A stretch of 60,349 bases of DNA, filler included, from Hausera hauseri (lineage: Eukaryota): assembly GCA_046269625.1 (NCBI GenBank). It is 12 parts of 12 records of this genome, joined end to end, with 100 filler letters (N's around TTAATTAATTAA, not from the genome) between each part and the next. Parts side by side here need not be neighbours in the genome. Positions count along the whole stretch, not along the records: positions 14,613 to 18,567 come from JBJURY010860299.1; 11 more parts are not named here. One strand, 5' to 3'. Of the stretch, positions 2,613-45,000 are shown piece after piece. The notes below the pieces were generated by a model. The model ran no database searches and was not told the origin of the DNA. It saw only the letters and a program-made list of their open reading frames with translations. Each line of letters begins with the position of its first letter. The stretch's first letter is position 1. The position numbers were made by a program, and so were the translations under genes.

Positions 2613-3550
2613 TTACAATGCCACATGCCTGTGAGATAGTGTGCTTATTTTATCACCCAGGATCTGCCACTTATCGTCCATCCAATTTAGACTGTTCTGA
2701 AGCCTTACAGTTCGGATCTCATGAGCCCAAGACTGGATCATGCGAATCTCTGATATAATGTGGGTCTGTTCATGCAAACCTCTCACATAATTATCGAAGC
2801 TGATCTTCTTGGCCAAGGTCGCCCTTTGAACCCCTTTAACCTCTTCTTTACTTGGCCACATACGTCAGTTGCATACATTTTGGACCTAAGAGCTACAAAT
2901 CGCGAGATCACTGCTCCATTTACCTCATTTTTGAATTTCCCAAGGACCGTTTTGTTGGCGATTGAATAGTTGAGATGCTTATTCGGATAGTCAGACGTAT
3001 CCATATGCTGAGCCAACTTAGCAAAGTCCTCATAAATATCCTCTGTATGGATCTGATGGATGAAACTATTAGTATCCATGTACATCAGTTGTATGGACTT
3101 GAATGTTGACACCATGATGTCATAGTGGAATTTGTACATCAGAGTCTTTGACACATCCTGCCATGGTCTTGCCTAAAACGCTGTTGTTGTACAACTTGAA
3201 CTGGTCCTTCTCAAAGTCGTTCTTGGCATTGGTCCACAGCTTTGTATTGAGGTCTATATATGGCTGCAGCCAGTTGGACTGGCTGAACTGCAGGGCCCGA
3301 TGGATCTCAGTAATGCGGAGTCCATTTCTGACCACCTGCTGGAGATTTATACAGCGGACTACATACCTCTCCCTACTATCCAGATGGCAGAGCAGCTTTC
3401 TATGCTTTCCATGGGGCAGTGGCTTGCTGTCAAGGAGAATAGGAACCTGTTCATACCTTGTGTGGATTCTATGTGGATATTCCACATCCACCTGCAGTAT
3501 GTAGTCTGTATGCCCACTGGGATCCACGTCCAGTATATGGATGTCTTCAG
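2613..3550 (-). pseudogene. Polinton/adintovirus protein-primed DNA polymerase B, C-terminal fragment with an internal deletion
   Basis: Motifs KNDFEKDQFKLYNNSVLGKTM, LMYMDTNSF, LGKFKNE, VALRSKMYA and KGVQR. Closely similar to 42030-42780 but lacking about 180 bp near 3155. Confidence 0.9.
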
Positions 3551-10475: not shown

Positions 10476-13400
10476 TATTTAATGTTTTCAATTTAAAGTT
10501 AACATTTACTTTAATTTGTTTAAATTTAGAAATGTTCACAATATCCCATGTATTGCATCTCTCGCATACATGGGGCGGCAAATCAGTACAATCAACAGAT
10601 GGCGAAATATTACAGTGTCGAAATGGACACATACCTGTGTCCGACGTGTAATATTTCAGCCAAATGTCCGCACCCCGATTTTTATGAGATGCACGAGCAT
10701 TATCTCAGACCGTTTACACGGTCGAAGAAGATGATGTAGTGCATTGCTCCGTGTACCCACGGTACTGTAAAAGTACAGTGCACGATGTCAGATCGTACGT
10801 GGATATAAAAGCGAACATGTCGGTGGCAAAAACAAAAACAACGGAATTGAGACATGTTCTGCAAAATGTGCTCAACCGGTTGGAATTAGAAGTGGAGAAA
10901 TTCAAACACCGCCACCAACACCATCACTGCAAAGTACAATATTATGCACTTGTAGAATTTGAAAACGTTGAAGGTGAAAGGAAACAATAGTTCCTGTCAC
11001 ATCGAGCTGTACTTTATACCAATGATTTTATTGCCGACGTTGGCAAAAAGGTCGAGGAAAAAATCGCCCACTACACGGAAAAGGGTAGTGGGTGGCGAAT
11101 TATACAAATTGTCACCCTCGGTATTATCATAACGAAGTCCAGTGATATAATATATTTGTCCGGGCGATCATTCAGACCGACACCTGCAGCTCTGAAGCAA
11201 TCTCTGGTGGTAGTGAATGTAAAAAATACTAACGATGAATACTGTTTTCTTTACAGTATTCTGGCGGTATTTAAATATGACAAAGTGGACAGACATAATG
11301 CATCTCCAAATAAAAAATATAAAAATATGAAAATATTTTTCCAAATTGCATTTCTATGAACGCTGGATGCAGACGAAACTCAAGAATATTCCGACTTTTG
11401 AACGGCGTAATCCGACATTGGCAATCAACGTGTTTCGGTACCACACAATAGTAGAAATACCAGTGGATGAAGAAATTTACAAAAATCTTCATGTGGATAT
11501 AATCTATAGTAGTCGGAACCCAAATGGCCGCTCAGTAAAATTGTTGCTACTAGAACGAAAAGAAAAATACCATTACATTGCAGTGACAAATCTGGACAGA
11601 CTACTGTACATGGAGAATGACCATTTTCTCCAAAAACGGATATAGTGTAAATGGTCTCCTGTATGCCTTCATGGATTCAGATCGGAAACAACATGGGAGA
11701 AACATGTGACTCTGTGCAGACAAAATTCGTCAGGAGCCACCAAGTATGTCATGCCCGTCAAAGAGCATCTCAGGTTCACTGATTGGTCAAAAACACAGAG
11801 TCCATCATATGTAGTATATGCCAATATCGAAGCTGTCTTTCCACGGCACAACATGTTCCAATAGCCGCCTGTATGTTGGTTGTCCCAATAAAAGCCGCAG
11901 GTCGTCAACCTCAATAATATGTTTTCCACGGATGGAATTGTGTACGCAATTTCTTGCAGCAGTTGCTAACCACAGTGGAAAGTGAAATCGCACCCTGGTA
12001 CAGTAGAAATAGCAATAAACCCTTGATGTGGACAGATGAGGATGAAGTCCTGACGTTGGCAGTCACAGATGCATGTTACCTGTATCACAGAATATTACCG
12101 TTTGATGCACAGGAACGGCTCATAACAGATCACGACCATTTTACTGGTCGATATCTCGGAGCAGCATGTAATTCATGCAATTTGGCAAGGCGTGTGCGGC
12201 CATTCCTGCTTGTGGTATTTAATAACTTCAGGAGTTATGATTGTCACCATATTTTGAAATGGGCAGTAAACGGATTTCCGCACTGGGAACTATCCATAAT
12301 TCCAACTACGATGCAGAAATACCTGTCACTGTCTGCTCCTATAAACAGGCTCCAGGTAGGCTTTCTTGATTCATTGCAATTTCTCAATAAATCTCTGGCA
12401 AAGTTGGTAAATGCATTGCTAGATGTGCCGATAGAACTGACACAGTTCCCCGCACATATTGCACGCAACGAAGGCATATTTCTTATGACTTTGCAACATG
12501 GTATAAACGACTCTGGACAGCAGAGGAATTACCGCCGCGATGGACAGGTATTACAGAAGATAATACCGAAAAGCACGAAGGCCTTGGACAGAACTCGGCT
12601 GTACAAACATGTTGGATTACATGCTGCAGTATCTTAACTGGACATGTACCTGTTGGTCGATGTGTTCCAGGCGTTTTTGGCGAAGGCGTTGGCTGAAGAT
12701 ACGTTGGAGCCACTCAACTTTTATTCCATATCGGGAATGAGTTAGAGGTCAGCTCTAATGTCACTGGACCGAAACATTGAGCTTCTTCAAGGTCCATAAA
12801 TGTACCGGCTGTTTGATGTTGTTATTGGAGGCGGTATGACGTTTGTCAAGAAGCATCATGTCCGTGCTACCGATGCCACATCACTGCTGTATATTGATAT
12901 TAGTAACCTGTACGCGCTTTCGCAACCCTTGCCGTATAGTTCATTCGAATGGGTTCTCGACAGACAAGATCTGGATGACATAATGGCCAACCTGCCACGA
13001 GCTGACATTTCAGGCTTATTCGTATACCTGATGGAGGTCGATCTCGTGGCACCAGATGAGCCGAATAACGTTTTGGACAATTTACCGGTCGCATTATTTA
13101 ACCAATGTCCGCAAGGCTCAAAAGTAAAAAAACTGCTCATGACGCATAAACCGAAGCTGAATTACATAGTCCATTGGCGTCTGATACAGTTTTGCATGCA
13201 GCACGGTGTACGCGTCACACAGCTGCATCGTACAATCAGATTTTCTAAGGCTCCGATATTCAATGCGTGCATAGATGGGAATTCCGAGAAACGAGTTTCA
13301 GCTTGTACAAAGTTCAAAAAGGATTACTACAATTTGAAAAACAATTCTCTGTACGGAAAAACAGTGGAAAATCTGAAAAGGTGGCTAAATGTGCGCCTAT

Positions 13401-14120
13401 GCAATAGCGAAAAGCTGTTGGTCACGTATACGAGTAAGGCGCAGTTTCGGAGGTCAATGCACATTGCCGATGGATTGGTTGAGGTGCTGTTAAACCGGGA
13501 AAAAGTAGTTCTTGACCGGCCAAGTTTCATCGGACAAGTGGTATTTGACATGAGTAAGTTGCGAATGTACTAGTTTTAGTATCGCGACTTGGCACGTTAC
13601 CGGCAAATATTCGACGGCTGTGAAATCAGTATCGTTGCCAGTGACACAGACAGCTTTTTCATTGAGCTGAAAAACGTCAATCGCGACCAACTGCTTCGGC
13701 AAATGACAGAGGATTGACTACTGGACACGTACAACTAACCACCGGATTATCCATTGTACAGCAGCGCGATTACCAACAAAATCGGCTGCTTACAGTATGA
13801 AAGTGAATGTTGCGTCTAGTATCGGAAATTGATATTCCTACGTCCAAAGTGCTACAGTCTTCTGACGGACTCTGGACCGAAAATTCGGGCAAAAGGAGTC
13901 TTGCTGAGACAGATGGAAATCGACCACAGTGATTATCGCCGCACCTATGAAGAATGAGGAGAATGAAAGGTTGTTGTGTCACAAATGATTATACGATCGA
14001 TTGAGCACAAGAAGTACACGTTGGCCGACACAAAAGTCGCTTTATCATGCGATGATGATAAGCGTAAGTGGGTGAGGCGAAATAAGAGTGTGGCTTACAG
14101 ACATTGGCATTTGAAATAAA
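10476..14120 (+). pseudogene. Near full-length decayed Polinton/adintovirus pPolB with an endonuclease VII/HNH-like insertion
   Basis: Motifs GSGW, VVNVKN..DEYCFLYSILA, DHDHFTGRYLGAACNSCNL, FLDSLQFL, LLYIDISNLY, NLKNNSLYGKTVEN, DTDSFF and DDKRKWV, with many stops and frameshifts. Confidence 0.92.
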
Positions 14121-14612: not shown

Positions 14613-15350
14613 AAGGCTCAAACCATTGCTCAGGCATTTGTAGAAGAAATTGTGTTTAATTATGGAGCTCCTACTAAACTATTAACAGATCAGGCTCCGA
14701 ATTTTACAAGAGAAGTAATGGCGGAGATTTCAAAGATATTCCATATATTACAGTTGAAAACTACTCCATACCACCCACAAACAAATGGAACAGTAGAAAG
14801 ATTCAACGGAACCTTAACCAACATGCTTGCAACTATGGTTAACGAACGACAAGATGACTGGGATGAATACATTAAACCATGTTTATTCGCCATAAGGAAT
14901 ACAATCCATCCTGCGACAAAAGAAACTCCGTTCTATTTAATGTATCTTAGAGATACGCATATGCCAGTTGATATAGACTTTAAAATGCCCGTGTACCATC
15001 TAAAGGACATGGAGTATAGAGAGTTACTAGAAGAAAAACTTGGGTACGTGTGGAACCTAGCTTTACGACACATAAAAATATGTCAAAAAGAGTATAAAAA
15101 TAGATATGACAAGAAAGCTAAGTCCCACAGTTTTAAACCTGGAGACAAAGTTATGTTACATACACCGTTGAGTAAGAAAGGCAGAACACCAAAGTTAGAC
15201 AGACCATACAAAGGTCCATATATGATCCAAAAAGTAGATGAAACAAACATCTACTTAAATAAAAACAGAAGAAATAAAATAGACCCAATAAAAGTGCACG
15301 TAAACAGATGTAAGCCGGCACCAATAGGGTCAAGGATTAGGAGTGAAAAC
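14613..15350 (+). CDS. Ty3/gypsy integrase core and C-terminal (GPY) domain, 5'-truncated by the contig edge
   Basis: Motifs YGAPTKLLTDQAPNF, TTPYHPQTNGTVERFNGTL, DWDEY, ETPFYLMY, KLDRPYKGPY and VHVNRCKP. Frame is open from 14613. Confidence 0.95.
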
Positions 15351-15353
15351 CCT

Positions 15354-18290
15354 AATTTATTATTGGTAACAACCTTTATGATATTAAGTTTAATTACTTG
15401 TGTATCAACTCAATCTCTGGATGTCAAGTATAAAGCTGTACAAGTGGGAAAATACCCATGTATAAAAATTATAGCTAACCGAAACTTAACAACAGACGAA
15501 TATATACATATATTCATATCGAAGTTACCTATTGTGGAAAAAGCCACACCAGAAAATTGTGATTTGTACCACAATCATTCAATACATATTTGCTGCGGAC
15601 TTTCATTTGGAGAAACGTACAGGATTCAATACGCAACGGAAAAGAGCGATTAGAGCTATAGAACGTATTTCTCATACCCCGGCACTACGCATTATTTTTA
15701 TCGACCCTACTTTCTTATTTTATTCTATTCCAAGATCATAAAAAACGGACCTTGTGTAACCGCGGAACCAGATGTTGTAATTACAGAGTATATAAAATTC
15801 AAGTATATAATATTTGATGGAATTAATAGTATACATTGTGAACCAAATTATCAGAATCCATATATGTGTTGCCCTATTGTTTTTGATAAACAGTATACGA
15901 TATATTACTGGACCACGTATGATGGTTATACATGGTCAAAGACAGCGGATGGTCCAGAAATAATAGTAAAATCCCCGGTAAAAGTAATTTCTACGTCGAA
16001 AATAACCACTTTGGCAACTCAATCAGGTACATTAACTACATCACATAAAATGGTAACCAGTCCTATTACAGAACCTAAGAAGAGTATTAAGGAACTGGAC
16101 ATAATTATTCAATCAACAACTTACTCATTAATTATCACAGTGTCTGACTTAAAGAACACGAATATAAAGTTTGAATGTCACTTCAACCATAAAATTATAA
16201 GCGAAGGAGTTTTAACCCCGGAAGAACCAACATCAGTTTGTATGCCCTTAAAGGCCGACACGAATTATAAAGTTGTTATAACGGAATTAGATGAAGATGG
16301 GCAGACTTTACAAGTTGTTAGAAGAATGGAGAAAACATTAAAACTATTAACGGTTACCACGACGAAAGTTATAAAAACAACCACCACACAAACTTTATTA
16401 GAAATTTCCAATAGATATCTCTGGATGATTATTACTCTAGGAGTCCTTTTAATTTTAATAATCATATTGTTACCAATAATAATTTATTGTAGTAGAGTAA
16501 GACATAGAATGCGCAAGACCAACAAAATTATACAACAACTAAAATTATTGAGGGAAGGACCCCAAGACGAGGATTTAATTGATAATATAAATGCGCCCTT
16601 CCAAGCTGAAAAGCTATCAGAATATGAACGGCGATCTCGACCGTTAACAGATGTTACACTATGTATGTGTACATATATATGTAATAAGGCTGCAAAATTT
16701 TTAGCAACCTACCAAAATAAAGATAATTATAAAAAATCACAGGCTGCAAAACCTTTCGCAACCTATCATAAAATTATTTACAGAAATTTTCCATGGTTAG
16801 TATTGATATCTTTTATTTCAGTCCAAGAAGGAACCGAAACAGCCCAAAGAGCAAAGTCTTTCTATTATAATATCGCCTCCCATCTTAATTCCACTGAACA
16901 AAAAGATTATATGTATTACGGGAAAGCATCCCTAATACCCAATAATCTGAAAGGACACCTTGTCACTCAAAGGGCTGGTCTCATTATTAAACTTCCTAAT
17001 ACGTCTACTAAGTTATCGGATCTAATTGATATCTCAACCAAAACGACTGCGGTCTATATATCAGTCGTAAGAGCCAGTCTACAGTTAAAGAGCAGGGCCC
17101 ACAAAACCAACATTACAGATGTACTCGACGTGGTCCCCTTTTCTACTATTAGGATAGATCAGCGCCTTTACAAAAACGTCACAATCATATTACGGACATT
17201 CGGAGGGCCAAGCCCTATATTATATATCGAAGTCACAAGAAGAGAAAAGATCCCTCACCCAGAATCCGACATACCAATTTTCAATCTTCCTCTTCCGAGT
17301 AAAGACCAGCTAGAAAAAGGATGTTCCTTCTCCAGAACTCCTATAGTTCCAAGAGACCAAATCGTTATTGTCTCCGTAAACGTTGCATACCTAACAAAGG
17401 ATAATCGTTCGGAAGCTACCCTTACAGAAATTACCATCATGGATTTAGATAAAAAAATTATTGTCGATCAACTCGTCGTACCTCGAGAACGTGTAGATAA
17501 TTACAATACCCAGATAACTGGAATACGTGAGTTAGACTTAATCGGCCAAGCCGACCAATACCAAATCTGGCCCACGATCAGACATCAGCTCATAGGAAAA
17601 ATGATTGTAGCGATGGACATATTTAAAATTAACTCTCAAATCGCTCTATTTAACATGGATAGAATAATGGGTATTCGAGATCTGTATTATAATGATCAGA
17701 TAAACCCAGGAAAAGTATTGACCCAGAAACAAATCTACTTGAAATTTAACGATATTAAATATCCAACAAGAACGAAGGACAAAGCGTTAGTCATGCTCAA
17801 TATGTATAATTCCCTCAAAGAATATCAACGTAACAATACAAAAATAAAATATGAATCAACAACTTATGAAGTCTCGAATTTACAATCCATCGACGAAACC
17901 TCTGTAACAACTCTTGAATCAATGGATATCGACGATCTCGTGAACATAACAGAATCAGAACCACAGACAGTAATCGATATCGATCAACATATACAGCCAT
18001 CATCTATCCAATCAGGATCCTCAATAAAAGTAAAACATGAACCTTCGTCAACTATTGTATCCAACAAACCAGTAACTGTTGACCTAACAAAAAACAAGAA
18101 GAGAAAAGTTCCTAAAGATCAAACCATCACCCTCAAACTCAAATTCAAAAGAAAAGGACTATGGCGTCACTATGAATCGTCCAACTATCGTGTGGAAAAT
18201 GGTACCCTAGAAGTTTACCCAGCGATGCTGAGGACAGCATCGACTGAGGGGGGAAATATTGGAACAATTGACATCGATAACAGTCAATAA
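15354..18290 (+). CDS. Env-position cargo fused in frame to integrase: signal peptide, 3 FN3-like domains, Thr-rich linkers, TM helix, and a cytoplasmic region with a REX4/ISG20-like pseudo-exonuclease; one in-frame TAG at 15651-15653
   Basis: Hydrophobic NLLLVTTFMILSLITCVSTQS. FN3 strand-F-like motifs GLSFGETYRIQY, PIVFDKQYTIYY and PLKADTNYKVVI. TM YLWMIITLGVLLILIIILLPIIIYC followed by RVRHRMRK. DEDDh-fold pattern at about 17361-17820. The 70 codons at 15654-15863 are stop-free and in frame with both listed ORFs. Confidence 0.8.
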
Positions 18291-18567
18291 TGACATTATT
18301 ATTTTGTGTCGACTGATCCACGCTCCGTCTAGTGAATTAAATTAACTTGAATCAATCTACACTCATTGATCTGCACTGACTTAATGTCATCTAATATATT
18401 TATGTAACCACAAATTTAACATTATTTATTTTGATCGTATTTGCAATTTTTTTTGTGTCATTAACATTTTTCTATATGTAATCTCATTTTTCTGTTTTTG
18501 CATGGAATTACATACGTCTGAGAAGGGACTATATAAACCCTTGTAATACTGTTGTGATATGACCAAA
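18246..18567 (+). repeat. PPT and 3' LTR (truncated by the contig end)
   Basis: GAGGGGGGAAA at 18246-18256, followed by AT-rich non-coding DNA with TATATAAA near 18530. Confidence 0.65.
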
Positions 18568-23554: not shown

Positions 23555-25171
23555 CTAATCACAGTGATTCTTAATCTTATTTAAAAACGATACCAATTTT
23601 TTCTTCGTCTGTTCATCAAAACATTTGCTACGTTTAGCCAAATCTAATTTTTCGCTTATTAAACTTTTCATATGTTTTTTTATACCTGATATATTTTTCT
23701 GAAATTCTTCAATGGCTCTATTGTTTGTTTTAATGTCATTTCCTTCGATTTCTAGAAACGTTTTAAGTCGTAGAAATGCTTGTAAATGACTGATAAACAA
23801 ACGGCATAGTTTTTCAAGAATCTCCAAAAATTCATAAAGCACATACAGAGTAACCGATGAGTCATCCGGTAAATTGTTCAACAAATTTGTGTAACTTACA
23901 CTGTTCCTGTGGATCAGAAGTATTATATTCTGTCTATAAAGGACCAACTGCTGATCATTCAGTTCACTGATACGGGACGGGATATTCAACTTCTCGAAAT
24001 CAACACAAATCAGTTGAGACTTGGTCATCAATCTTTTTTTCCATCGTCCAATTATCGTATCCAAATCCTTTCTCAGAAATTTTCCCACCTTTCTCAGTTC
24101 CTTCATTGAACTGCAAAGTTCATCGGTGAAATAAACAAAGATATCTTCATAAATTTTCGCCGTATCATCTGCTGCTAATATCATACGTTCACCTGTTGTC
24201 TCGTCATACGAGAAATGAGTGTTGAACGGACATCGGCAGTTGTTGTAGAACATGATTTGTCGACACGATCTACATAATCGGTGCATGTAGCAATTCGGGA
24301 AGATGAATGGATCATTACTCGACAAAGGAATAACACACACAATACACTGATCTGGTGATGAGTTCAAATATTGTGAAATATTATCGAACTTATTCGAATA
24401 GCTGAGCAGAATGTGTCGAATACCAAATATATCATTTTCAATGAACATGATCTCTTTGTGAATTTCATCGTTCGATAGAATATGTTTATTAACAAGGTCA
24501 TGTATTGGACCAGGATCATGAGTTCCGGAAAATAGTTTGTCTAATTGATTCAACATAAATTTGATATTATTAATTTTACTATTGAACATTATGAGAACGT
24601 CTGCCAGCTGCTGCAATTGTTTGATGAGATGCAAATTAAATAGATAGCTCGCTTTTCGATAATCAAAATGTTCATGGAGACTCGAAAAATGCCCATTCAG
24701 ATCGTCAATATCGTCAGAAATTTTAGCCAAAGACAGGAATTCCTCGTTACCATTCTGTAGTAATTGATCAAGGATATTTTTGAACGTGTTTATTTCGTCT
24801 TCATTTGTCAAATAATCGGGACTGTTGTTCTGTAAAATGTCCTTTAGCATTCTATACGACTTCATCAGCGTTTCCAAATAGCTAAGTTCGATTTGAAAAT
24901 ATCCGACAAGGAAATTTTCACAGGATTCTGTCACCGATATTTTAATGTATTCCTTGTAATTCATCGTTTCCGTAATGGTCAGATCTGTTGAGTAGATCTT
25001 TATCGATTTTGAAATTAGTCGATCCAATGGGCAAATGTAACTTGTCTCATTCCACTTTTTGAAACACTCATAGCAATAGACATGACAACATGGCTCTAAT
25101 TTTACCCTATCTTCAGATAAACTGTAGCAGAAGACACATTCATCCACTGCATTTTGTTCCATATTTTGCAA
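23555..25171 (-). CDS. Intronless protein with two RING-type zinc fingers, each followed by a long helical region (probable E3 ligase)
   Basis: RING1 CVFC..PCCHVYCYEC..CPLDR; RING2 (degenerate) CIVC..NCYMHRLCRSC..CPFN. Uninterrupted 538-codon ORF. Confidence 0.8.
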   Translation of the reverse strand: MQNMEQNAVDECVFCYSLSEDRVKLEPCCHVYCYECFKKWNETSYICPLDRLISKSIKIYSTDLTITETMNYKEYIKISVTESCENFLVGYFQIELSYLETLMKSYRMLKDILQNNSPDYLTNEDEINTFKNILDQLLQNGNEEFLSLAKISDDIDDLNGHFSSLHEHFDYRKASYLFNLHLIKQLQQLADVLIMFNSKINNIKFMLNQLDKLFSGTHDPGPIHDLVNKHILSNDEIHKEIMFIENDIFGIRHILLSYSNKFDNISQYLNSSPDQCIVCVIPLSSNDPFIFPNCYMHRLCRSCRQIMFYNNCRCPFNTHFSYDETTGERMILAADDTAKIYEDIFVYFTDELCSSMKELRKVGKFLRKDLDTIIGRWKKRLMTKSQLICVDFEKLNIPSRISELNDQQLVLYRQNIILLIHRNSVSYTNLLNNLPDDSSVTLYVLYEFLEILEKLCRLFISHLQAFLRLKTFLEIEGNDIKTNNRAIEEFQKNISGIKKHMKSLISEKLDLAKRSKCFDEQTKKKLVSFLNKIKNHCD

Positions 25172-25681
25172 ATGATAAATACCGATAACATTTTAGCTAA
25201 TATACGGAAAAATATTACATAATGGAATATTACGTATTATAAAATATTTACATAATATAAATTTCCGCTTTATTATTTTCGCATAAACTTCATTTCTTTT
25301 CCTCTTTAATTATTCGTTTTCAATCTAACTTTATTTGTCATTCATTCCGTTGTCAGAATTCATTAGCAACGTATACTGGATACAGAATTTCATTTTGAGT
25401 AAAGTCCAAATAACGCAACTGCAGCATTCACATGTAGAAATGTGGCCATAAACTTGAACAATTGTTCATTCACCCCCTCCCCATATGCACACAAATTTTG
25501 AATTTCCATAAACTTTCCGCTAATTTTATTCATTCGAATTATCGAATTAATATTCCATATCCAATATGTAGGGTCATCGATTTTTTTACGCGGCAAGGTT
25601 TTTCGATTTCCGCGGCATATAAGCAATTTTATAAGGGTTTCCGCGGCGCGAAGTAAATCATAGATTTTAGAAGAAAAAACA

Positions 25682-26595
25682 TTCACCGGGGAAGGGGATT
25701 TTATGAAAATAAAAATCAATAATAGAATAACGAGCAGTAGGTCCGCAAATTGGGCTTAGAGGGAGAACTATGATGTATTTAATTTAATTTATTTATTTAA
25801 TTAATTTATTATTTATTTAATTAATTTACCTACTGCTCGTTATTCTATAATAACAGCGCTTAATAGTTTTATAACTTATAAATTATAAGTCTCTGCATAT
25901 TGGTATAGAAAATGAAACGCATTTGAATTTTTATGTCATCAACTGAACTTTTTTGTTGATTTTTATCGTCAACTGAATTTTTATGTCGTGAACCCATTAA
26001 CTTGAGTTACTGAAATTTTATTGTATTTTTTATTAGTTGCCATAGCTTATTATGTAAAAAGTGTGTGATCAACCAGGTATAAATACCTGGTCATTTTTAC
26101 TAGAAACAGAACAATTGATAAAGATTGTACCTTCACGATTATTATTTGACTCTTAAGTTGATCAATCCCTGTAAGTTTTCATGAACATTTCTTATCATTT
26201 TTGGATTATTATATTATTTTCCCCCATTTTGTTATATTCTGATTCTAACTAATTAAGTAAATAAGTAATTCTAAGTAAACGATTGGAAGACTCAGCCGTC
26301 CAGGTCAAACTCTACCTGACGGCAGCACGTTTAATATTAATTAAAACAGTGTCAAATAAAACCGTAGTAAGTAAAACCAAAAGAAAGGGCATAAATAGCC
26401 TACTAGACCCTGACATATAGACATAGGATAGTGCTAGGTAGGATTCTAGCATCTGTCCCACCCACACATTATAAAGTTATTTGTTCGCCCATTAATTCGT
26501 ATAAGGTATAATTAAAAGTCCCTCCGAAATTGAATTATTGGGAACTGAACAATATTATTGATTTTTATTTCCATAAAATCCCCTTCCCCGGTGAA
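25682..26595. mobile_element. Non-autonomous inverted-repeat element with a nested 127-bp mini inverted-repeat element
   Basis: 42-bp inverted repeats with 1 mismatch at 25682-25723 and 26554-26595. Inner 21-bp inverted repeat ATAGAATAACGAGCAGTAGGT at 25722-25742 and 25828-25848. Confidence 0.75.
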
Positions 26596-26696
26596 NNNNN
26601 NNNNNNNNNNNNNNNNNNNNNNNNNNNNNNNNNNNNNNNTTAATTAATTAANNNNNNNNNNNNNNNNNNNNNNNNNNNNNNNNNNNNNNNNNNNNT

Positions 26697-27296
26697 CAAG
26701 GAGATAGGCCTACAGGTTTTTTACCGCAGTTTAACAGAGATAGAGAATTAGGTAGAACAGTACAACCTATTCCGAATCATCCTGAATTAAGACCTGGAAA
26801 TGATCAATGGTTCCCACGTGAAAGAGTTCAAGGTAATCCTTTAGGAACAGACACTGAACGCGACAAATTATTTTTAGAAACCTTGCATATTTATAAGACA
26901 GTTAAGGATTTGCAAGTGGGTCGATATGGTGATTTGCAAAGAGATGCCGACCATTATGATGGTATGCATCATGATCACTGGCCATCTGCGGCGGCAATCA
27001 TTAAACATATAGAAGATAGTAGACGCATAGAATTATCTCGATCAGAAAGGAATGAAATTATAAAAAATACAAATGCTATTGTTATTGTGGAAGAGTTACA
27101 TTTAAAAAGTAGAACATTTGGTGGAAGGAACACAGCAGTCCAAATAGAAACTGATTCAAAAGATTTGGCTACTGCTGCCGCTAAAGATGCCGAAGTATTT
27201 AGGGAAAATGCTTTGAAAAGAGGGTATGAACCTGAAAAAATTGAGGAAGCAATACGAAAAATGCACGATCTAAATAGAAAGTGTGGATTATATTGA
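26697..27296 (+). CDS. C-terminal part of a polymorphic toxin; nuclease domain of the type found in S-type pyocin (S3-like) and Rhs C-termini
   Basis: Frame is open from the contig edge. Motifs VGRYGDL..DGMHHDHWPS..AIVI..LH..SRTFGGRNT..DSKDL..IEEA..MHDLN..GLY. Confidence 0.7.
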   Translation, partial: QGDRPTGFLPQFNRDRELGRTVQPIPNHPELRPGNDQWFPRERVQGNPLGTDTERDKLFLETLHIYKTVKDLQVGRYGDLQRDADHYDGMHHDHWPSAAAIIKHIEDSRRIELSRSERNEIIKNTNAIVIVEELHLKSRTFGGRNTAVQIETDSKDLATAAAKDAEVFRENALKRGYEPEKIEEAIRKMHDLNRKCGLY

Positions 27297-27299
27297 TAG

Positions 27300-27809
27300 G
27301 TGAGTAAAATGAAAAATATTACATTTGAACAAAAATTGTTGAACATTCTTGGAAAAGATAATGATGATGATGCGGTAAAAAAATTTGTTGAGGATATTGA
27401 CGAAAAGCCTACAGTTGGAATTGAAGAATTTGAGCTACCAAATGATAGATTGTATTATGAATTCTCAAATTATGGTCTTGCGTTAATGTTTAATAAAAAA
27501 GGAAAACTAACAACAATATATGTACACATAATTGGTAGCAAAGGATTTAATAGATTTAGCAAAGATTTTAATTGGTTCATTAATCAAGAACGTGATTGTG
27601 ACAGGGTAAATATTATAAATAACCTTGGAAAACCTTCTGATGAAAATAATGAAGAGTATTTTTATTATGGGTATTTAACGCCTAAATGGATAGTATACGA
27701 TTACAAAGACTATACAATTCATTTTACATTTTATGGTGCAAGAGATAAATTGGCACAAATAACAATAATGACTCCAGACGTTGCACCTGGAAGAAAAAGT
27801 GCCGCTTAA
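27300..27809 (+). CDS. Cognate immunity protein (DUF6392-like)
   Basis: Starts 3 nt after the toxin stop. About 169 aa, acidic/aromatic, with an L..LGK..YY....GL.L.F....L..I pattern and LGKP..WI.YDY. Confidence 0.6.
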   Translation: MSKMKNITFEQKLLNILGKDNDDDAVKKFVEDIDEKPTVGIEEFELPNDRLYYEFSNYGLALMFNKKGKLTTIYVHIIGSKGFNRFSKDFNWFINQERDCDRVNIINNLGKPSDENNEEYFYYGYLTPKWIVYDYKDYTIHFTFYGARDKLAQITIMTPDVAPGRKSAA

Positions 27810-27818
27810 ATTTCGATA

Positions 27819-28067
27819 TTAAGCTACCAGGTAGTTAAGTTCTTTTTTTTCTTCTAGTTCATCATAAAAGATATCAGGACGGAGATCTTTTTCAGTGACT
27901 TCGCCTTGTGATATGGCTACCAATTTTCTAACAACAGATGGTGATATTGCAGTTCTTCCTTTTAACCAATCAGTTATATTCCCTCTGCTGACGCCAATTT
28001 TACGAGCAAGTTCAGCCTGAGACCCAACCTTATTAATTATTTTAACTAAATAACTTTTTCTATCCAT
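27819..28067 (-). CDS. Cro/YdaS-like HTH regulator
   Basis: GSQAELARKIGVSRGNITDWLKG...GEVTEKDLRPDIF is a classic Cro/YdaS signature. Confidence 0.9.
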   Translation of the reverse strand: MDRKSYLVKIINKVGSQAELARKIGVSRGNITDWLKGRTAISPSVVRKLVAISQGEVTEKDLRPDIFYDELEEKKELNYLVA

Positions 28068-28099
28068 AACTTTATCTTAACACATATATTAAAAAAATG

Positions 28100-28182
28100 T
28101 TGACATTGTACTTAAATCAGTACAAACTAGAATTGTTTTGAAATGTACTGCGATGCTCAGAGCTTGGTACCTCTGGCATCGC
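28100..28182 (+). promoter_or_regulatory. Divergent promoter region with an operator palindrome and a leader hairpin
   Basis: TTGACA at 28100; perfect 7-bp palindrome TTGTACT-N6-AGTACAA at 28106-28125; TAGAAT at 28128; stem GCGATGC..GCATCGC at about 28150-28182. Confidence 0.6.
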
Positions 28183-28216
28183 TTATCACTAACGCCACGC
28201 AATAGGAGCCAATGAA

Positions 28217-28486
28217 ATGAGTACTTTTTTAAGTATACCCAAACCAAAAAAGTTTAGCAACACACATAAACCACCAACTAACCAGCCTGAACGACAAGAA
28301 CTTCACGGATTGATCCGTTCTATTCTGCAATATCGCCCACCTCAGGATCACTTATACCCAGACGATGGCTTTGACTGCTTAGCCTTTGAGTATCCTTACG
28401 GCCATTCAACATACATTCGCGATCTCACCTCGGAAGGCTGTTTTTTCGATATGGAGCAAGGAGCAGAACATGAACACATTCAATAA
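28217..28486 (+). CDS. Phage hypothetical protein
   Basis: AGGAG RBS upstream; first ORF of the operon. Confidence 0.5.
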   Translation: MSTFLSIPKPKKFSNTHKPPTNQPERQELHGLIRSILQYRPPQDHLYPDDGFDCLAFEYPYGHSTYIRDLTSEGCFFDMEQGAEHEHIQ

Positions 28487-28691
28487 GGAACAATTTAAGG
28501 ACGAGTTGTACGAGTTCATAACAGCCAGAATTAACGCTGTGTATCCCGACTTAGTGAGAACTGGTGGAGATGTCGGGAACTTTCATAGGGAATTTCTACA
28601 AGCTGTTTTCTTCATAGTGGAGGAGACTGTTGTCCAGAACTTTCATGGTTGGAAGTGGTACCTAGAAGCCAAGTACAGGGGAGGTAAATAA
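28470..28691 (+). CDS. Phage hypothetical protein (MNTFNKEQF...)
   Basis: AGGAG RBS before the ATG at 28470; overlaps the preceding ORF. Confidence 0.55.
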   Translation: MNTFNKEQFKDELYEFITARINAVYPDLVRTGGDVGNFHREFLQAVFFIVEETVVQNFHGWKWYLEAKYRGGK

Positions 28692-28692
28692 G

Positions 28693-29874
28693 ATGTGTAT
28701 ACAACTAAACAAAATTGAGGTGACAAAAACCTACAGACTTCCTGCTTTTAGCAGGGAGTTTGTACTAAACGACTGTATAATAACCAGTACCCGCATGGGT
28801 ACAACCCTTAATGATAAATTTAATTCCTTCAGTTACTGCGTAGTAGAAGGAATTTACGTTATGAATGGTATTAGTGGATTGCAACAAGAAGCACAAAAAC
28901 TTGCTCTTAAAAAGGCAGTAAACGAATTGGGCGGAATAGATAATTTTGCCGCGGAAGCAGATGTATCAAGGTATACAGTTAAAAATATCCTATACGATCC
29001 AACTAAATATGGTACTTTAAGATGTGCTATTCTGGCGGTTCTAAAATGTGGTGTTGATATAAGTATAGTATCGCCAGGAACGTCTAAATTAAACGCTCTT
29101 TTTAAACAAGTTATCTCACCGCATATAAAGCACATTCTTCTAAAAAACATCATCTTTAATCCAAACATTCATTATCTAAATTGCTGTCATGATGAGCACG
29201 AGTTTATGCTCGTTGATGATCGTAATGAGATCATATCTGGCAAGCAAAAGAAGTTGGAATCAGAACGAAAAGGAGAACTGATAACAGTCGTAAAACATAT
29301 CAATTTGGACGATTTATGGGATGGAAGGACGGGTATTTATAGCTATGGTATTTGTATCAACGACATCCGAAAATGGGAAATTGGAGTCAAGTTATTTGAC
29401 CGATACACTAAAGGATCGGGTTTTAGGAGCGATATTGAAAAAAATATCTTAGAAAATTGGTCAAAAAGTAGTCAACCTACGCAAAATTTTGCGCAGGTTA
29501 AAACTCCAAAACGGCAACCAGAAACATTAGATAAGGTGTGTGACATAGTTGAACTCAACAGAACAACTTTTCGCCAACTCAACAAAATATGCCTTTCTGA
29601 AACTCATCCACTAATAGGTGCTGTTGCCAAAGGACTTTCCGTAAATAAAGCCACCGATGCATTAAATGCATTTTTTCACGAAAACTCCGCACAACGTGAA
29701 TCAATACTTCACAGATTGTTGAATGGTGAAGTTGACGACTCGCTATTGCAAGAAATTAAAGCAGAGGCAAGGCTCCAAGGCTCCAAGGCTCCAAGGCTCC
29801 AAGGCTCCAAGGCTCCAAGGCTCCAAACAATGTTAACGGAATATGGGGAGAGGCGACATGAACATACACACTAA
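28693..29874 (+). CDS. Cro-like HTH plus ParB-N-like protein (start may be 28861) with a C-terminal 8-bp repeat tract
   Basis: HTH LKKAVNELGGIDNFAAEADVSRYTVKNIL; ParB-like MLVDDRNEIISG; GAAGGA before the ATG at 28861. Confidence 0.6.
   Translation: MCIQLNKIEVTKTYRLPAFSREFVLNDCIITSTRMGTTLNDKFNSFSYCVVEGIYVMNGISGLQQEAQKLALKKAVNELGGIDNFAAEADVSRYTVKNILYDPTKYGTLRCAILAVLKCGVDISIVSPGTSKLNALFKQVISPHIKHILLKNIIFNPNIHYLNCCHDEHEFMLVDDRNEIISGKQKKLESERKGELITVVKHINLDDLWDGRTGIYSYGICINDIRKWEIGVKLFDRYTKGSGFRSDIEKNILENWSKSSQPTQNFAQVKTPKRQPETLDKVCDIVELNRTTFRQLNKICLSETHPLIGAVAKGLSVNKATDALNAFFHENSAQRESILHRLLNGEVDDSLLQEIKAEARLQGSKAPRLQGSKAPRLQTMLTEYGERRHEHTH
29771..29826 (+). repeat. (GGCTCCAA)7 simple sequence repeat inside a CDS
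   Basis: Seven exact 8-bp copies. Confidence 0.95.
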
Positions 29875-30049
29875 CCCATGTGTTTTAGTCAGAGCGGTAC
29901 GAGTTCTTGATTATTGCTTGGGAGATCAAGGGAACGCTTTAGTAAAAGATGTCATTAACGGACACGTATTTAAGACTTCGATATCCGATATCAAGCGTTA
30001 TACCTACCAAGGAGAAGAACTATTACTAGTAACGGGAGACATACAATGA
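29858..30049 (+). CDS. Phage hypothetical protein
   Basis: GGGGAGAGG RBS; ATGA overlap with recT. Confidence 0.55.
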   Translation: MNIHTNPCVLVRAVRVLDYCLGDQGNALVKDVINGHVFKTSISDIKRYTYQGEELLLVTGDIQ

Positions 30050-30921
30050 GTGCAACAATTATTCATCAACAGTCTCATGGAATCATGGACTTTAGCAAGT
30101 TTGAGAACGCATGGAAGGCTTGCGAGTTTATAGCAGGTTCTTCTTTCTGTCCAAAAGAGTTTAGAAGTAAACCTGGTGATGTGCTTTGTGCCATTCAATA
30201 TGGCACAGAAATTGGTTTGCAACCTATGCAGGCTTTGCAGAACGTTGCGGTGATTAATGGCAGACCGTGCGTGTATGGCGATACGTTGCTTGCTTTGTGT
30301 CAGTCTTCTCCTGAGTGTGAGTACATTCACGAGGAATATGACGAGAACACAGAAACAGCAATTTGTAGGGTCAAGCGTAAGGGGCATCCTGAACTTGTAA
30401 GAACGTTTAGCAAAAAGGAGGCTGAGGCTGCTGGGCTTCTAAAGCGAGAAGGGCCTTGGCGTACTTATATGAAACGGATGCTACAGATGCGCGCCAGGGG
30501 ATTTGGTCTAAGAGATGCGTTCGCTTTCCTTTTAAGAGGCATCATCACTGCTGAAGAAGCAAAAGACTATCCAATGCCACAAAAACAGTTTCAAAAAATA
30601 ACACCTATCAATTCGAGCATTCAAGTAATTGAGCAACATCAAACAATGACGGAAGAAACCAAGCATCATTTATTGAGTTTAGTTAAAGCTGTCAATTTAA
30701 ATAATGAACGAGTTCAAAAAATTACGAAATTTGCAAAAGTTGAACACTTAGAAGATATAAGCGAAAAAATAGCTTTAAAGGTGATAGGACAGCTTGAAAA
30801 AGAATTTTCTAACGTTATGAATCAAGAAGAACCTTGTGAGCTTTGTGTAGAAATTCAGCAAGTAACTGAGGAAACCAAAAGTAGTGATGTCGCAAGCATG
30901 ATGGAGATAAAACAACCATGA
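30046..30921 (+). CDS. recT: RecT/Red-beta family single-strand annealing protein
   Basis: KPGDVLCAIQYGTEIGLQPMQALQNVAVINGRP...GPWRTYMKRMLQMRARGFGLRDAF...EEA. Confidence 0.9.
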   Translation: MSATIIHQQSHGIMDFSKFENAWKACEFIAGSSFCPKEFRSKPGDVLCAIQYGTEIGLQPMQALQNVAVINGRPCVYGDTLLALCQSSPECEYIHEEYDENTETAICRVKRKGHPELVRTFSKKEAEAAGLLKREGPWRTYMKRMLQMRARGFGLRDAFAFLLRGIITAEEAKDYPMPQKQFQKITPINSSIQVIEQHQTMTEETKHHLLSLVKAVNLNNERVQKITKFAKVEHLEDISEKIALKVIGQLEKEFSNVMNQEEPCELCVEIQQVTEETKSSDVASMMEIKQP

Positions 30922-31136
30922 ACAAAGAAAAAACAAAAAAAACCATAAATTACAGTTTAACCATTCATGAAAAAATGAAGGATCGTATTTACTTAATTGA
31001 AGATACAGTTACAGAAATAAGAAAAATGATAGATGAAATTGATAATAAATTAGAATTAATCAAGAAACATATATGGAAAATAGATGACGATATTAATGAT
31101 TCTAGAGAAGCACTTCGAGGAGAAAATAATGCTTAA
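30918..31136 (+). CDS. Small coiled-coil phage protein
   Basis: ATGA overlap, GGAG RBS and heptad pattern. Confidence 0.6.
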   Translation: MNKEKTKKTINYSLTIHEKMKDRIYLIEDTVTEIRKMIDEIDNKLELIKKHIWKIDDDINDSREALRGENNA

Positions 31137-31389
31137 TGAAGAAGATGTTCTCAAAAGTTTAAACGCTGCGTGCTCTGCATTTGGAGCAATAACAATCCAC
31201 AGCAGTGCAGCCTCTACGCGCTGTACAAAAATGATTGCCGATAAGCTTTGCAAAGACATAAGCAATTGGGAGATTGGCAAACGAATTTCCCAATATCGTT
31301 ATAAGATTGAGCAAACGTTGAACTGGATAAAACCGCTTGAGGCTGAGTTTTTGAAAAGGAGGGAAGCAAATGAGCAAGAAGGTTGTTGA
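31129..31389 (+). CDS. Phage hypothetical protein (MLNEEDVLKS...)
   Basis: GAGGAG RBS; overlaps its neighbours. Confidence 0.55.
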   Translation: MLNEEDVLKSLNAACSAFGAITIHSSAASTRCTKMIADKLCKDISNWEIGKRISQYRYKIEQTLNWIKPLEAEFLKRREANEQEGC

Positions 31390-31672
31390 TTATGAGATTT
31401 TAATATATGCCGATATACTAGTTACCATCACATCCTTGAATGTCACTCAGCAGTTATAGAATATCTGCCTTTCATGGATCCATCTTTTGTTCAAGTCCTA
31501 GGTACATGACAANNNNNNNNNNATAGAAACCTTTGAGGAAATAATTAAAGATAGCCTTGAAGATGGTTATGAATTATATGGATTTCCTTGGTCAAATATA
31601 GATGAAAACAAGAAAGAATGGTTTTACCAAGCAATGGTTAAGTATGAGGAATGCAAGGAGGATTCCAAGTGA
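31370..31672 (+). pseudogene. DUF1737-like small protein interrupted by an insertion and an assembly gap
   Basis: MSKKVVDYEILIYAD before the insertion and IETFEEIIKDSLEDGYELYGFP...FYQAMVK after the 10-N gap. Confidence 0.55.
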
Positions 31673-32011
31673 ATTTTTTTCTAAAAGATCATCAAGAAAC
31701 CCATCGTTACGAGAAAAACAAAAAGCGTATATCCATATTGGAGCTTTTACGAATTGCAATATATGCAGCAATTGTAATGTTCGTAATTCATTTGATTTAT
31801 AAAGGGTCTTCTTACTACGACAAGAAGAGTGAACCAACGAAAGAGGTCTTAAAAACGGAGGTGAGAAATAGTTATGTTTAAAAGTGATGTGTATTTGTTA
31901 ACGATGTTATTTAGTTTGAGTTTGTGTGTGTTTGGAACTGGAATACTGGTTGGTCAGCATATTGGTTTAAATTCCACACATGGTTATGAACGTTTATTTA
32001 GTAAGGAGTGA
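31669..32011 (+). CDS. Two small single-TM phage proteins (31669-31881 and 31874-32011)
   Basis: Hydrophobic segments IAIYAAIVMFVIHLIY and YLLTMLFSLSLCVFGTGILVG; RBSs and overlaps. Confidence 0.5.
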
Positions 32012-32460
32012 ACAAAATGGCAGCACAAGTGAATGAAAAGCAATTTGAACTAGCAAAGCCTGGAAGGTATGAGTTTTATATCTCAGGCGTTATTGATACT
32101 AATAAGGACGGAATACCATTAACTTTAAGCAATGGACATCCTTATAGACGTATTAGATTAACTGTCATAGACAAAGATGATTACTGCACTGATATATACG
32201 ATGTTGTGTTTGATTCTGACAGGGTAAAAGAAATATTTGAGTGTGTCGGAAAGCCCGTATCATCCACCACAAAAATTGATTTAGACCATCTTTACGATCT
32301 AAGAGGGCATAGAGGTTATTGCATGGTTGGGATCAGGAAAAGTAAAAAGGAAGACTATAACGACCAAAACGACGTTAAGTGCTACATCCCTAAAAGCGTA
32401 TGGAGCGACAAAAGTTCTAGTGGAGACAGCATCAAGTGTGTCACAAACGGGTATGTCCAT
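32008..32460 (+). CDS. DUF669-like phage ssDNA-binding protein, with its 3' end replaced by non-phage DNA
   Basis: FELAKPGRYEFYI..IYDVVF..DLRGHRGYCMVGI..YNDQNDVKCYIP. The listed ORF tail (IHFNFNKSFHLLF..) is read from the AT-rich foldback. Confidence 0.6.
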
Positions 32461-32470
32461 TACAACATAC

Positions 32471-32964
32471 ATTTCAATTTCAATAAATCATTTCATTTAC
32501 TTTTTACATTTTTGCATATTTTAGCTATTTTTGATTACTGCTTTGATTATTTTAAATTTAGAATAAAAAGAAGGTAAATATGAAATGGAAGCCGAAAAAA
32601 GGAACTGATGCTATTCTGAAAGAATGTAAGTAACTGGTTAAACTCTAGAAACTTGTTGAAATAACTGTGACATAAAAATCATTCATTTTACAGTACCAGA
32701 GGATTCTTCACGAGTTGGAAACAAAGTCATTAAAAATGAAACTGTAAAATAAATGATTTTTATGTAACAGTTATTTCGACAAATTTTTAGAGTTTAACCA
32801 GTTACTAACATTCTTTCAGTATAGCATAAGTTTCCTTTCTCCGGTTTCCATTTCATATCTGCCGCATTTTTATTCTAAATTTAAAATAAAACAAAGCAGT
32901 AATCAAAAATAGCAAAAATGTAAACGAAAATTTAAAAAATAAATGAAATTATTAAAATTGAAAT
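32471..32964. repeat. Imperfect inverted duplication (arms 32471-32694 and 32741-32964) of eukaryote-like DNA
   Basis: Arms align at roughly 85% by eye. The left arm contains a canonical 68-nt intron-like segment GTAAGT...TTTTACAG (32626-32693). Confidence 0.85.
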
Positions 32965-40265: not shown

Positions 40266-40575
40266 AGCAGCAGAATTAGGGTCACCACCCGACCCCTATC
40301 GACGACCAGCAGCGGAGAGAATTAGGGTCACCACCCGACCCTATCGGCGACCAGCAGCAGAGTGAAGTAGGGTCACCACCCTACCCTATCGGCGACCAGC
40401 AGCGGAGAGAAGTAGGGTCACCACCCGACCCCATCGGCGGACCGCAGCGACGAGAAAGGAGGGTCACCACCCGACCCCCCTACCAGCAGCAGCGGAGAGA
40501 AAGGAGGGTCACCACCCGACCCCCCTACCAGCACCACCAGAAGAGCGAGGAGGGTCAACGCCGACCCCCTTACCG
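40266..40575 (+). repeat. Seven ~45-bp GC-rich tandem repeats, each with a GGGTC-loop-GACCC hairpin, in the retroelement leader
   Basis: GGGTCACCACCCGACCC or a close variant near 40279, 40325, 40370, 40415, 40461, 40506 and 40552. Confidence 0.9.
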
Positions 40576-42027: not shown

Positions 42028-45000
42028 AAAATCCATATGCTGCGCCAACTTAGCAAAGTTCTCATAAATGTCCTTTGCATGGATCTGATAAATAAAACTA
42101 TCAGTATCCACATACATCAGCTGTATGGACTTGAATGTGGGAACCATGATGGTATAGTGGAATTTGTACATCAAGGTCTTTGACAGGTCGAGGATTGCCA
42201 TACCAACATATATGGGCTTGCTAAATTGCAAGGATGTTTTCAGCATATGGATGCTGACCAAGTTCTCCGCATATATGATGCTGCTGTGGAAGTTGGGCTT
42301 GTCAATGAGCTTCTTTGCCCGCTTTTACTCAGAGACCAGTTCGATGATGATCCTGTTGTGATTATTCTCCATGATCTTGCTAAAAACGCTGTTGTTGTAA
42401 AGCTTGAACTGTTCCTTCTCAAAGTCGTTCTTAGCATTTGTCTACAGCTTGGTATTGAGGTCTACGTAGGGCTGCAACCAGTTGGACTGGCTGAAATGCA
42501 GGGCCCAATAGATCTTTGTAATACGGAGTCCATTTCTTACCGCCTGGTGGAGATTTTTGTAGTGGACTACATACCCCTTCCTACCATTTAAATGGTAGAC
42601 CAGCTTTCTATGCTTTTGATGGGGCGGAGGCTTGATCTCAGGGAGAAAAGGCAGTTATTGATGCCTTGTATGGATAGAAGCTGGATATTCCATATCCAAC
42701 TCCAGTATGTATCCCGTATCTACAGTGGGACCCAGGTCTAGTATAGGGATGTTTTCAGGATGTTCTACCCACTTGAAGTTGTCATATGGCAATGGGGCGC
42801 TTATTGCCCATGCATACAGTTTGTTGGCATCCAGGCATGATATATATGAGGATTCCTAGGATGGATCATACTAGGCCATATAATTGTTGTTGGCCTTGCC
42901 ATATTGGCGAATGGCCTGGCATATTCCGCCCCTATGCCTCTTTCGATCAAGCAAATCATATCGTAATCCTTCATGATCTGCAGCTTAATACCGGTATATC
43001 TTCGCATTGCTGCCCAGCTCATACCTGAAACCGTAAAGAAATGAGCTGGATCCAATGCATGGCTCTTTATCGTAACATCTATGAAACTCTCAAAGATATC
43101 TGTCAGAATCACACATCCGTCTTGAAGTATATGCCGCTGTATTCTCCTAATGTTCGGCATTGGAATGCATGCCAGACGTTCTGAGAATGAAGGTAGTCCT
43201 CATTATTGTTATCGCAATCAGAGAGGATATTGTAAAAGTTCTTCTTGTCCGGCATGAGGTCTCATCCAGTGTTTCCCATGATGTTATGTAATCACAGGGA
43301 AACAGCCTTTCCTCTTAACAAGGTCAAATGCAGTGGGGAAGAACCGCGTCGTCTCCTTGAGTTCTTCTGCAGAGAGGCTTTTCACTAGTGTCAAGTGAAA
43401 ATGACATGAAACGGAAACTGTCTACGAAGCAAAGCCTGATTTTCTCAACATGCTTGGTAAAGGTGACGTACTTTTACTCACTATTAGGGATCACATCAAT
43501 GTTCCCTTCAATTCTTCCCAGTTCCCGAATAATGAAGTGGAAATCATATCCACTGAAGTTGCGAAACACTACAGGCACACATATACATGTTTTGCAACGC
43601 AGATTGCAGTTGTTACATGCCGCGCCCCGATATGTGCCTGTAAAATGGGAATAATGCCTGGCTTTATAATTCTCCTTAGTGAATGATTTGATGCACAAGT
43701 AACATGCTGTTTCCTTGTGCCATTCTTCTTCTTGCTTCTTCGACATGCACATGATATCCTTCTGCTGCAGCAGCATATCTCCAATCCTATGAGCCATACT
43801 TTCAAGTCGTTTCATGAAATGAGCTGCTGCGCCTGGACTCCTAAATAGAAGTGGTTCACTGTCCAGTCCTTTCGCATACAGGCAATATGATGAGAATTAA
43901 TTATATTGGTATGCCGTTGTGCTGCTATGTTGGAGGTTAGGGCTGCAGTTGTGAACTGGACGCAGGATAGCTTCAAAGTTGCAATAGGTAACAATTGGGA
44001 CCTTGATCTTCTTCCAGAACTCTTTAAATTCATTGTAATCCTCCTTCGGAAATTCTGGCCAGATACAATAATTATTGTTTCAGTACATCTTGTGTTCTTT
44101 CAGCTTCTCCATTGCTAACTTGCTTCTGAAATGGGACAAGAATCGTTTGCATATTTCGATTCTTTCCTAAGGTTTGGTAATTTCTGTTCTGACTAACCGC
44201 TCGAAGTCTTTGATCCAAACATAATCTTTCTTTTCTCCATCGTCTAGTAGGAGCAGATCCCTATAATCTTTCAATTCAGCATCACATATTTGCAGGGGGT
44301 AGAATTTGTCCTCCTCATATAGAATTTGTCCTCCCCAAGATATTGATGGACATGTTGTTGACTTTTCCAATTTTTTTGACTTCATCAATAGATGGTGGGA
44401 AATTGATACATTGGAAGTCGTAGTTGTGCTGCACATCCTTATATAGCCAAACCTGTGAAGCATGATTTTGATCCCTTATGAGTTTTGATAGAATGGCATA
44501 CATGAAACACATGTTGCCGTTATTATGGACATTAACGCATGCTTTTTTATTAGCGATCCAATCCGGGAGCTGAATATATGAACAGCCCCGCATGGGAGAG
44601 TATTGTGCACATGTACAAGCAATCTCTTTACTGTTGCCACAGTCAAGCCGCTCTTCTTCTCCTGGCTGTCCTCGGCTTCATGGATCAGCTTCCTATGTTC
44701 TTCATGCGACCATTCTGTTATATTGGTGTTTCCCAATATGGGTCTATTTTTGGTCTTGAAGGCCCAATTGGATTCTTTGCAATCAACTTTGATGTATGTG
44801 GCCACCAGTTTCATATTCACTTCAAGGGCTTTGAGCTCAGCCATGTTGTCCTGGAGAATTCCCTCTGTTTGTCCCTTTTTATATTCCAGGAACTCATGGA
44901 GCGTTGTTTGGTTAGTTGCAACAATAACATAGCTGCGGCATTTTTTCTTTAATGTTACCGCCTTAACTGGCCGCTGTATTTGGCTTTTTGGTGGAGCATC

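Follow-up and report, generated by a model that had tools for sequence, protein, structure and literature searches.

An element of the eukaryote Hausera hauseri (GenBank assembly GCA_046269625.1), very likely of the Ty3/Gypsy LTR type, carries a REX4/ISG20L2-type DEDDh exonuclease domain that has lost its catalytic residues and that follows a predicted membrane protein in the same reading frame. We found the domain in a 60,349-nucleotide stretch of 12 genome parts joined end to end, hereafter the window, together with an N-terminal partner domain shared with an unnamed two-domain family. A sequence-only reading of this DNA had recognized the dead REX4/ISG20-like domain, a part of that reading that stands, but had missed both the partner domain and the in-frame fusion behind a membrane protein.

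A REX4/ISG20L2-type domain without its catalytic residues

The motifs from which the sequence-only reading had proposed a REX4/ISG20-like DEDDh domain are all present, in place and in frame, within the ORF 15654-18290, and profile, profile–profile and structure-database comparisons bear the assignment out. We fetched REX4-type reference proteins by motif (127 loci, 76 domains, 71 unique) and compared a profile of the 71 domains with 664 ORFs of the window: this ORF scored 25.2 bits (i-E 4.7e-7), the next-best ORF reached a full-sequence score of only 2.5 bits, and none of 2000 shuffles attained the domain's score. HH-align gave 95% over 141 columns, the ESM Atlas returned RNase_T clusters (0.94; 22 of 30 matches), and a PHROG DnaQ-type model matched the domain at E 1.2e-4. 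Taken alone, the window domain matches Pfam RNase_T under the cut-off (E 0.063), and its PDB matches at E<=10 are limited to SDN1 (E 0.0078) and ISG20 (E 0.27). Its C-terminal half is not significantly similar to cellular REX4 (1120 of 2000 and 105 of 500 shuffles reached its score) but scores 17.5 bits against the closer family described below, with 0 of 2000 shuffles as high. Both single-sequence AlphaFold models have a pLDDT of 30. From its sequence, 17355-17822 is related to the REX4/ISG20L2-type DEDDh fold, and the matches are in line with the single cluster that REXO1/3/4, ISG20 and PAN2 are described as forming (PMC3985635).

The loss of catalytic residues, also part of the earlier claim, holds when the domain is aligned with intact relatives, whose five catalytic columns are occupied here by S17373 and N17379 (ExoI), I17628 (ExoII), and T17766 and K17781 (ExoIII). 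ExoI D-x-E is replaced by S-V-N at 17373-17381, and the ExoI strand (17361-17399) contains no acidic residue in any register. ExoIII lacks its His-x4-Asp, with T17766 in the His column and D17778 one residue ahead of the Asp column. The ExoII column is ambiguous against REX4, where HH-align places it at S17634 and MAFFT at D17658, and is fixed as I17628 only by the closer family. Each catalytic replacement is 2-3 base changes away from the family residue, in a count that took ExoII at the HH-align column 17634. The conserved Gly-His ahead of ExoII, the His of which we take to touch substrate in ISG20, is Ala-Met in the window domain; relatives have ~11 more columns in the stretch before ExoIII, and the domain carries a net charge of just +2. 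Two-metal catalysis is described as depending on the acidic residues (PMC13659232), and 17355-17822, as read from these columns, is not an active DEDDh enzyme.

The carrier element and its predicted membrane-protein part

The contig holding the domain comprises 3955 bases (window 14613-18567) with a gap on either side. One reading frame spans 14616-18290, interrupted by a single in-frame stop at 15651-15653; the ORF 15654-18290 has 878 codons and ends with the stop at 18288-18290. In order, the frame encodes the tail of a Gypsy-type integrase, a signal-like segment, Cys repeats, a TM helix, ~280 residues without a match in the domain libraries, the DEDDh domain and a tail (Table 1).

Table 1. 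Element features on the contig, in window positions
Feature	Position	Strand	Basis or remark
Ty3/Gypsy-type integrase, C-terminal part (core, GPY motif, SH3-like)	14616..15347	+	5' part lost in gap
Hydrophobic, signal-peptide-like segment	15348..15419	+	In frame with integrase; Kyte-Doolittle (KD) 19-window peak 1.88
Predicted ectodomain: two, perhaps three ~80-aa Cys-containing repeats plus Ser/Thr-rich stretch	15411..16337	+	Shuffle tests
Predicted TM helix, then basic residues (positive-inside, type I)	16404..16505	+	KD peak 3.41
Second, weaker hydrophobic 12-mer, upstream of N-domain	16788..16823	+	KD12 2.21
N-terminal partner domain (N-domain), IPN-x-x-K motif	16833..17258	+	~150 aa; common to family; HMM match
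REX4/ISG20L2-type DEDDh pseudo-exonuclease	17355..17822	+	Profile, HH-align, PDB, ESM Atlas, family alignment
Low-complexity Ser/Thr/acidic tail with basic KNKKRK	17823..18290	+	Composition, motif
Polypurine tract (PPT)	18246..18256	+	Only G6 run on contig
Putative 3' LTR start	18257..18567	+	Position after PPT; runs into gap

The integrase is of the Gypsy type with a GPY/SH3 tail and matches PFV integrase (E 2e-11) and Ty3 Gag-Pol (E 3e-8); its Pfam matches (rve_3, rve and SH3_Tf2-1) all fall under the cut-off. The PPT-like GAGGGGGGAAA at 18246-18256, which is followed by the letters TA, not TG, and a TATA-like box at 18530 together suggest that a 3' LTR starts near 18257; of the 12 indel rows among those listed in the comparison of copies, six fall at 18329-18447, inside this putative LTR. 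No RT or 5' LTR was found on the gap-bounded contig 14613-18567. The integrase matches, the PPT and the presence of many copies in three sequencing runs agree with the earlier claim of a retroelement carrier and make a Ty3/Gypsy LTR type very likely, with a Ginger-type DNA transposon as a possible alternative.

The segment behind the integrase would, we infer, act as a signal peptide. Ectodomain repeats 1 and 2, which flank the stop at 15651-15653, are related (their score was reached by 3 of 2000 shuffles), and the similarity of repeat 3 is not significant in the shuffle test. The sole basis for calling the repeats 'Fn3' is a weak match to Pfam Fn3_Dep-1_3rd (E 0.004, under the cut-off), and sequence searches of the ectodomain against Pfam and PDB gave no match to an F-type or gB-type fusogen. 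A signal peptide, ectodomain and TM helix downstream of integrase are likewise described for env-carrying Ty3/Gypsy elements (errantiviruses), whose Env is an F-type or gB-type fusogen, whereas the window ectodomain consists of short Cys repeats without a fusogen match (PMC13524379). In the text of that survey, the words 'exonuclease' and 'fibronectin' have 0 occurrences. Past the TM helix, the second hydrophobic segment at 16788-16823 could leave the topology of the module ambiguous. Between the TM helix and the module, window 16690-16790 carries a short imperfect tandem duplication (AAKFLATYQ / AAKPFATYH), which lies near a step-down in contig coverage and is a possible module boundary.

Decayed, Polinton-like pieces of a protein-primed PolB with endonuclease VII occupy window 10688-14100 and 43474-45267 (the second block identified by eye), with Pfam DNA_pol_B_2 and Endonuclease_7 on 11918-12634. 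A Polinton identity for the element was considered and dropped because these PolB pieces are decayed and lie on a different contig. Other Gypsy-type RT/RNase H and integrase fragments are found at window 46851-48516, 51972-52430 and 1175-1477; two of them are 24-31% identical to the element's integrase and thus belong to different families. The window is animal-like in its dynein, MATH and RING matches, and its minus strand holds an uninterrupted 545-aa ORF at 23555-25192 whose only clear domain is an N-terminal RING finger. A gap-bounded block of bacterial or prophage-like genes at 26652-32964, possibly symbiont DNA or mis-scaffolding, was also seen; within it lie a RecT-like annealing protein at 29974-30921 (phrog_561, E 1.6e-36) and a long inverted repeat at 32518-32919. 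Minor repeats comprise an inverted pair (25682-25724 and 26553-26595), a dispersed pair at 84-88% (2999-3460 and 42031-42668), and short tandem arrays with 45-nt and ~29-nt units (40294-40533; 54823-54982).

Copies, relatives and the loss of catalysis

The element stretch is multi-copy, with 5190, 888 and 106 matching contigs in three runs from three studies; we compared only copies at least 80% alike and read residue changes at the ExoI codons. Nearly all matching copies differ from this copy at 15651-15653, and the stop is therefore peculiar to it. ExoI is covered by six contigs (four in X1, two in X2), each with 0-13 other changed letters, and among the differences listed for these six none changes either ExoI codon, while the codon between them varies. 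Near ExoI, 13 places vary and 10 of them fall at third codon positions (p=0.0016); of the 16 difference rows there, 13 are silent, compared with 26% of possible changes. Over the whole frame, 23 of 39 places are at third positions (p=0.0009; 39 of the 40 best-supported rows listed, with 963 further). As read from these copies, the ExoI loss is not decay of this copy, and the dead domain appears to be kept by selection. The sequence-only reading had staked its claim on the family consensus not being intact, and here the outcome is divided: ExoI is absent in all close copies compared, but 18 of 26 members of the wider protein family are intact. Because the wider family is mostly intact, the dead state would belong to a sub-lineage.

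That wider family emerged from a HMMER search of 1.84 billion representatives, which gave 27 matches, 26 of them kept as relatives; the one dropped, P0027, is a 2157-aa protein of Ig repeats whose match covers 49 residues. Word-indexed homologue searches returned no relatives. Assemblies of ENA, JGI, Logan and MetaClust are the source of the 20 relatives that we looked up, and P0009, P0016/P0033, P0018 and P0026 sit on 14-30 kb contigs. The family profile matches ISG20L2 (E 3.4e-27), ISG20 (7.4e-17) and SDN1 (9.7e-15) in PDB, and Pfam recognizes only RNase_T in the 26 relatives, above the cut-off in 13. The N-domain is present in 18 of 26 relatives, as an extension of at least 150 residues upstream of the DEDDh domain; an HMM of 18 relatives, built without the window, scores the window N-domain at 55.6 bits (0 of 2000 shuffles), and at 45.2 bits when P0002 is also left out. 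Searches of the N-domain against Pfam, PDB, PHROGs, NCBIfam and the ESM Atlas gave no match apart from a weak Csx14 in NCBIfam (E 0.016, far under the cut-off). A PC4-like fold, suggested by eye, was unsupported by searches.

All five catalytic columns are intact in 18 of the 26 relatives, six lack ExoI, and two keep ExoI but are truncated. The closest relative, P0002, is also dead, and aligns with both domains in register at 27% identity over 339 columns (E 2e-31). Under either tree, catalysis must have been lost at least twice: a tree with the catalytic columns and REX4 rows puts six of seven dead rows together (90/89), and one without the motif columns puts five of seven together (93/95) and needs three changes, with neither grouping starred and with long branches meeting. 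In neither tree does P0018 join the window's group. A 100/100 branch separates 10 REX4 rows from the window and its 26 relatives, those 10 being motif-selected, narrowly sampled and without ISG20L2; on the rows sampled, the domain is not a cellular REXO4/ISG20L2 orthologue. Among near-full-length rows, an upstream hydrophobic segment is present in three of the six dead and in none of the 13 intact (p=0.021 in a post hoc test on rows that are not independent). Without the window the association has p=0.065, and the segment is missing in three of the five other near-full-length dead members. KD12 reaches 3.11 and 3.18 in the dead P0002 and P0018, above the window's own value, and is <=1.08 in the 11 intact relatives with usable sequence. 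These figures hint at a link between catalytic death and membrane anchoring.

None of the 26 relatives matches the window integrase or ectodomain, and that the relatives ride on retroelements is inferred from this one locus. Scans of viral contigs, metagenome contigs and prokaryote genomes found no relatives of the element or family, and a phage tblastn gave nothing below E 0.5.

Possible roles of the dead module

Our preferred reading, which we hold tentatively and with somewhat less than even confidence, is that the dead REX4/ISG20L2-derived domain is tethered to a membrane and binds RNA, holding and shielding that of the element. An ancestral mobile element would have captured a REX4/ISG20L2-like nuclease bearing an added N-terminal domain; the enzyme may first have served the element as an active accessory, and the window lineage would then have lost catalysis and kept binding. 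The signal segment and TM helix would place the module on the cytoplasmic membrane face, where it could bring together RNA or particles of the element, for assembly or transport, and keep RNA 3' ends covered; the element's protease might also set free a soluble, nuclear form, or such a form might be translated from an internal start, for which the ATGs at 16509 and 16665 are candidates. Exuperantia, PML-1 PXL and Maelstrom share with the window domain a DEDD fold without catalytic residues and use theirs to bind nucleic acid, as described for PXL and Exuperantia (PMC13659232) and for Maelstrom (PMC7968707). Unlike the window module they are host genes with SAM-like or zinc-site additions, none was retrieved by any sequence search here, and the likeness is one of functional analogy. 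Counting against a membrane-tethered RNA binder are the low net charge, the Ala-Met in place of Gly-His, the columns missing before ExoIII, the second hydrophobic segment and the weakening of the hydrophobic association once the window is removed.

A soluble counter-defence factor, released by proteolysis or made from its own start, which in the nucleus or nuage would shield against host 3' exonucleases or small-RNA silencing or act as a decoy for them, is in our judgement unlikely, if still a serious contender. Most near-full-length relatives are stand-alone ORF calls that start 170-240 aa ahead of ExoI without a hydrophobic segment, a distance that ATG 16665 matches; host DEDDh exonucleases reportedly restrict retrotransposons; and of 16 family tails, 10 contain the NLS-like motif K[KR]x[KR], where 4.0 would be expected. 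The KNKKRK of this tail, noted in the sequence-only reading and located at 18090-18107, is such a motif, but NLS-like motifs are equally common in intact members and are therefore no mark of a decoy. As for viral precedent, arenavirus ExoN keeps its catalytic residues, which tells against the parallel. In its favour, ExoN is described as suppressing innate signalling (PMC7968707). An internal signal at 16788-16823 would instead leave the dead module lumenal or secreted, where it would serve an envelope-like protein as a structural or surface domain. We consider this improbable: the dead P0002 and P0018 do start with strong signal-like segments upstream of the N-domain, and the module has 8 N-glycosylation sequons against 4.9 expected, but the window segment is short and its hydrophobicity lower, sequons are only slightly in excess, and the basic motif and disordered tail are like those of soluble relatives.

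The low net charge, altered Gly-His, shorter C-terminal part and long branches of dead members would also suit a protein-interaction scaffold that binds no nucleic acid, which we judge quite improbable given that the PR and GxRD motifs and the beta2-beta3 core are conserved with intact members and that described dead DEDD folds are mostly RNA binders (PMC13659232). That the module is a functionless relic in a polyprotein, its frame kept open only by fusion or recent amplification, is very improbable in view of the silent-site bias inside the domain and of a dead relative at 27% identity that keeps both domains in register. The upstream stop in this copy points towards a relic, as do two coverage observations: fewer matching contigs over the module than over the integrase, although contig depth cannot rank genes, and one contig that joins across 16788-18136, a multiple of three, with just 20 letters on one side and so not relied on. 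Run X3 leaves 6 of 30 bins uncovered, every one of them from 16726 on, and this proves nothing. Least credible of all, to the point of being nearly negligible, is a still-active nuclease with a rearranged site, for example D17778 with D17658; acidic residues do lie near two motifs, but the ExoI strand has none in any register, and two-metal catalysis needs them (PMC13659232).

Extending the preferred reading of a tethered RNA binder, we regard it as a distinctly unlikely but conceivable scenario that a mobile-element exonuclease family switched more than once from soluble active enzyme to membrane-anchored dead RNA binder, the dead module here forming the inner face of a non-fusogen repeat-ectodomain membrane protein, an envelope/matrix-like device that would link retrotransposon RNA to the membrane for cell-to-cell or germline delivery. 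If the tether is real, an integrase, signal, repeat ectodomain, TM helix and pseudo-nuclease in one frame is an arrangement absent from the literature searched, and it would bear on membrane use by fusogen-less elements or on resistance to RNA-level defence. Within the family, one scaffold comes naturally in active and dead forms, in which cutting would be separable from binding.

Most accessory genes of animal LTR retrotransposons lack an explanation, and known exonuclease captures such as the rotifer DEDDy ORF3 are without tested function. Bdelloid-rotifer Juno and Vesta (LTR) and Athena/Terminon carry, as here, a DnaQ-superfamily 3'-5' exonuclease downstream of pol; their ORF3s are described as RNase D-like DEDDy proteins that keep the catalytic DEED and, in the part of the source available, as lacking TM or coiled-coil domains (PMC5408684). 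The window element differs in having a DEDDh, REX4/ISG20L2-like domain that is dead, equipped with a new N-domain and placed downstream of a predicted membrane protein in the same frame. Among solved structures, those closest to the family profile, ISG20L2/ISG20/REXO4 (PDB 7yw5, 1wlj) and plant SDN1 (5z9x), are cellular, with an intact site and no match to the IPN domain. The literature searched showed no capture of a DEDDh REX4-type domain, whether dead or fused; such elements may occur in supplements or Repbase, outside that scope. Exonuclease captures by elements are mentioned in two reviews (PMC6338049, PMC6431247), and Dada DNA transposons are reported to carry intact DEDDy domains (PMC3706591). 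We also observed an intact REX4-type exonuclease encoded on a giant-virus MAG contig (L008:235-1125).
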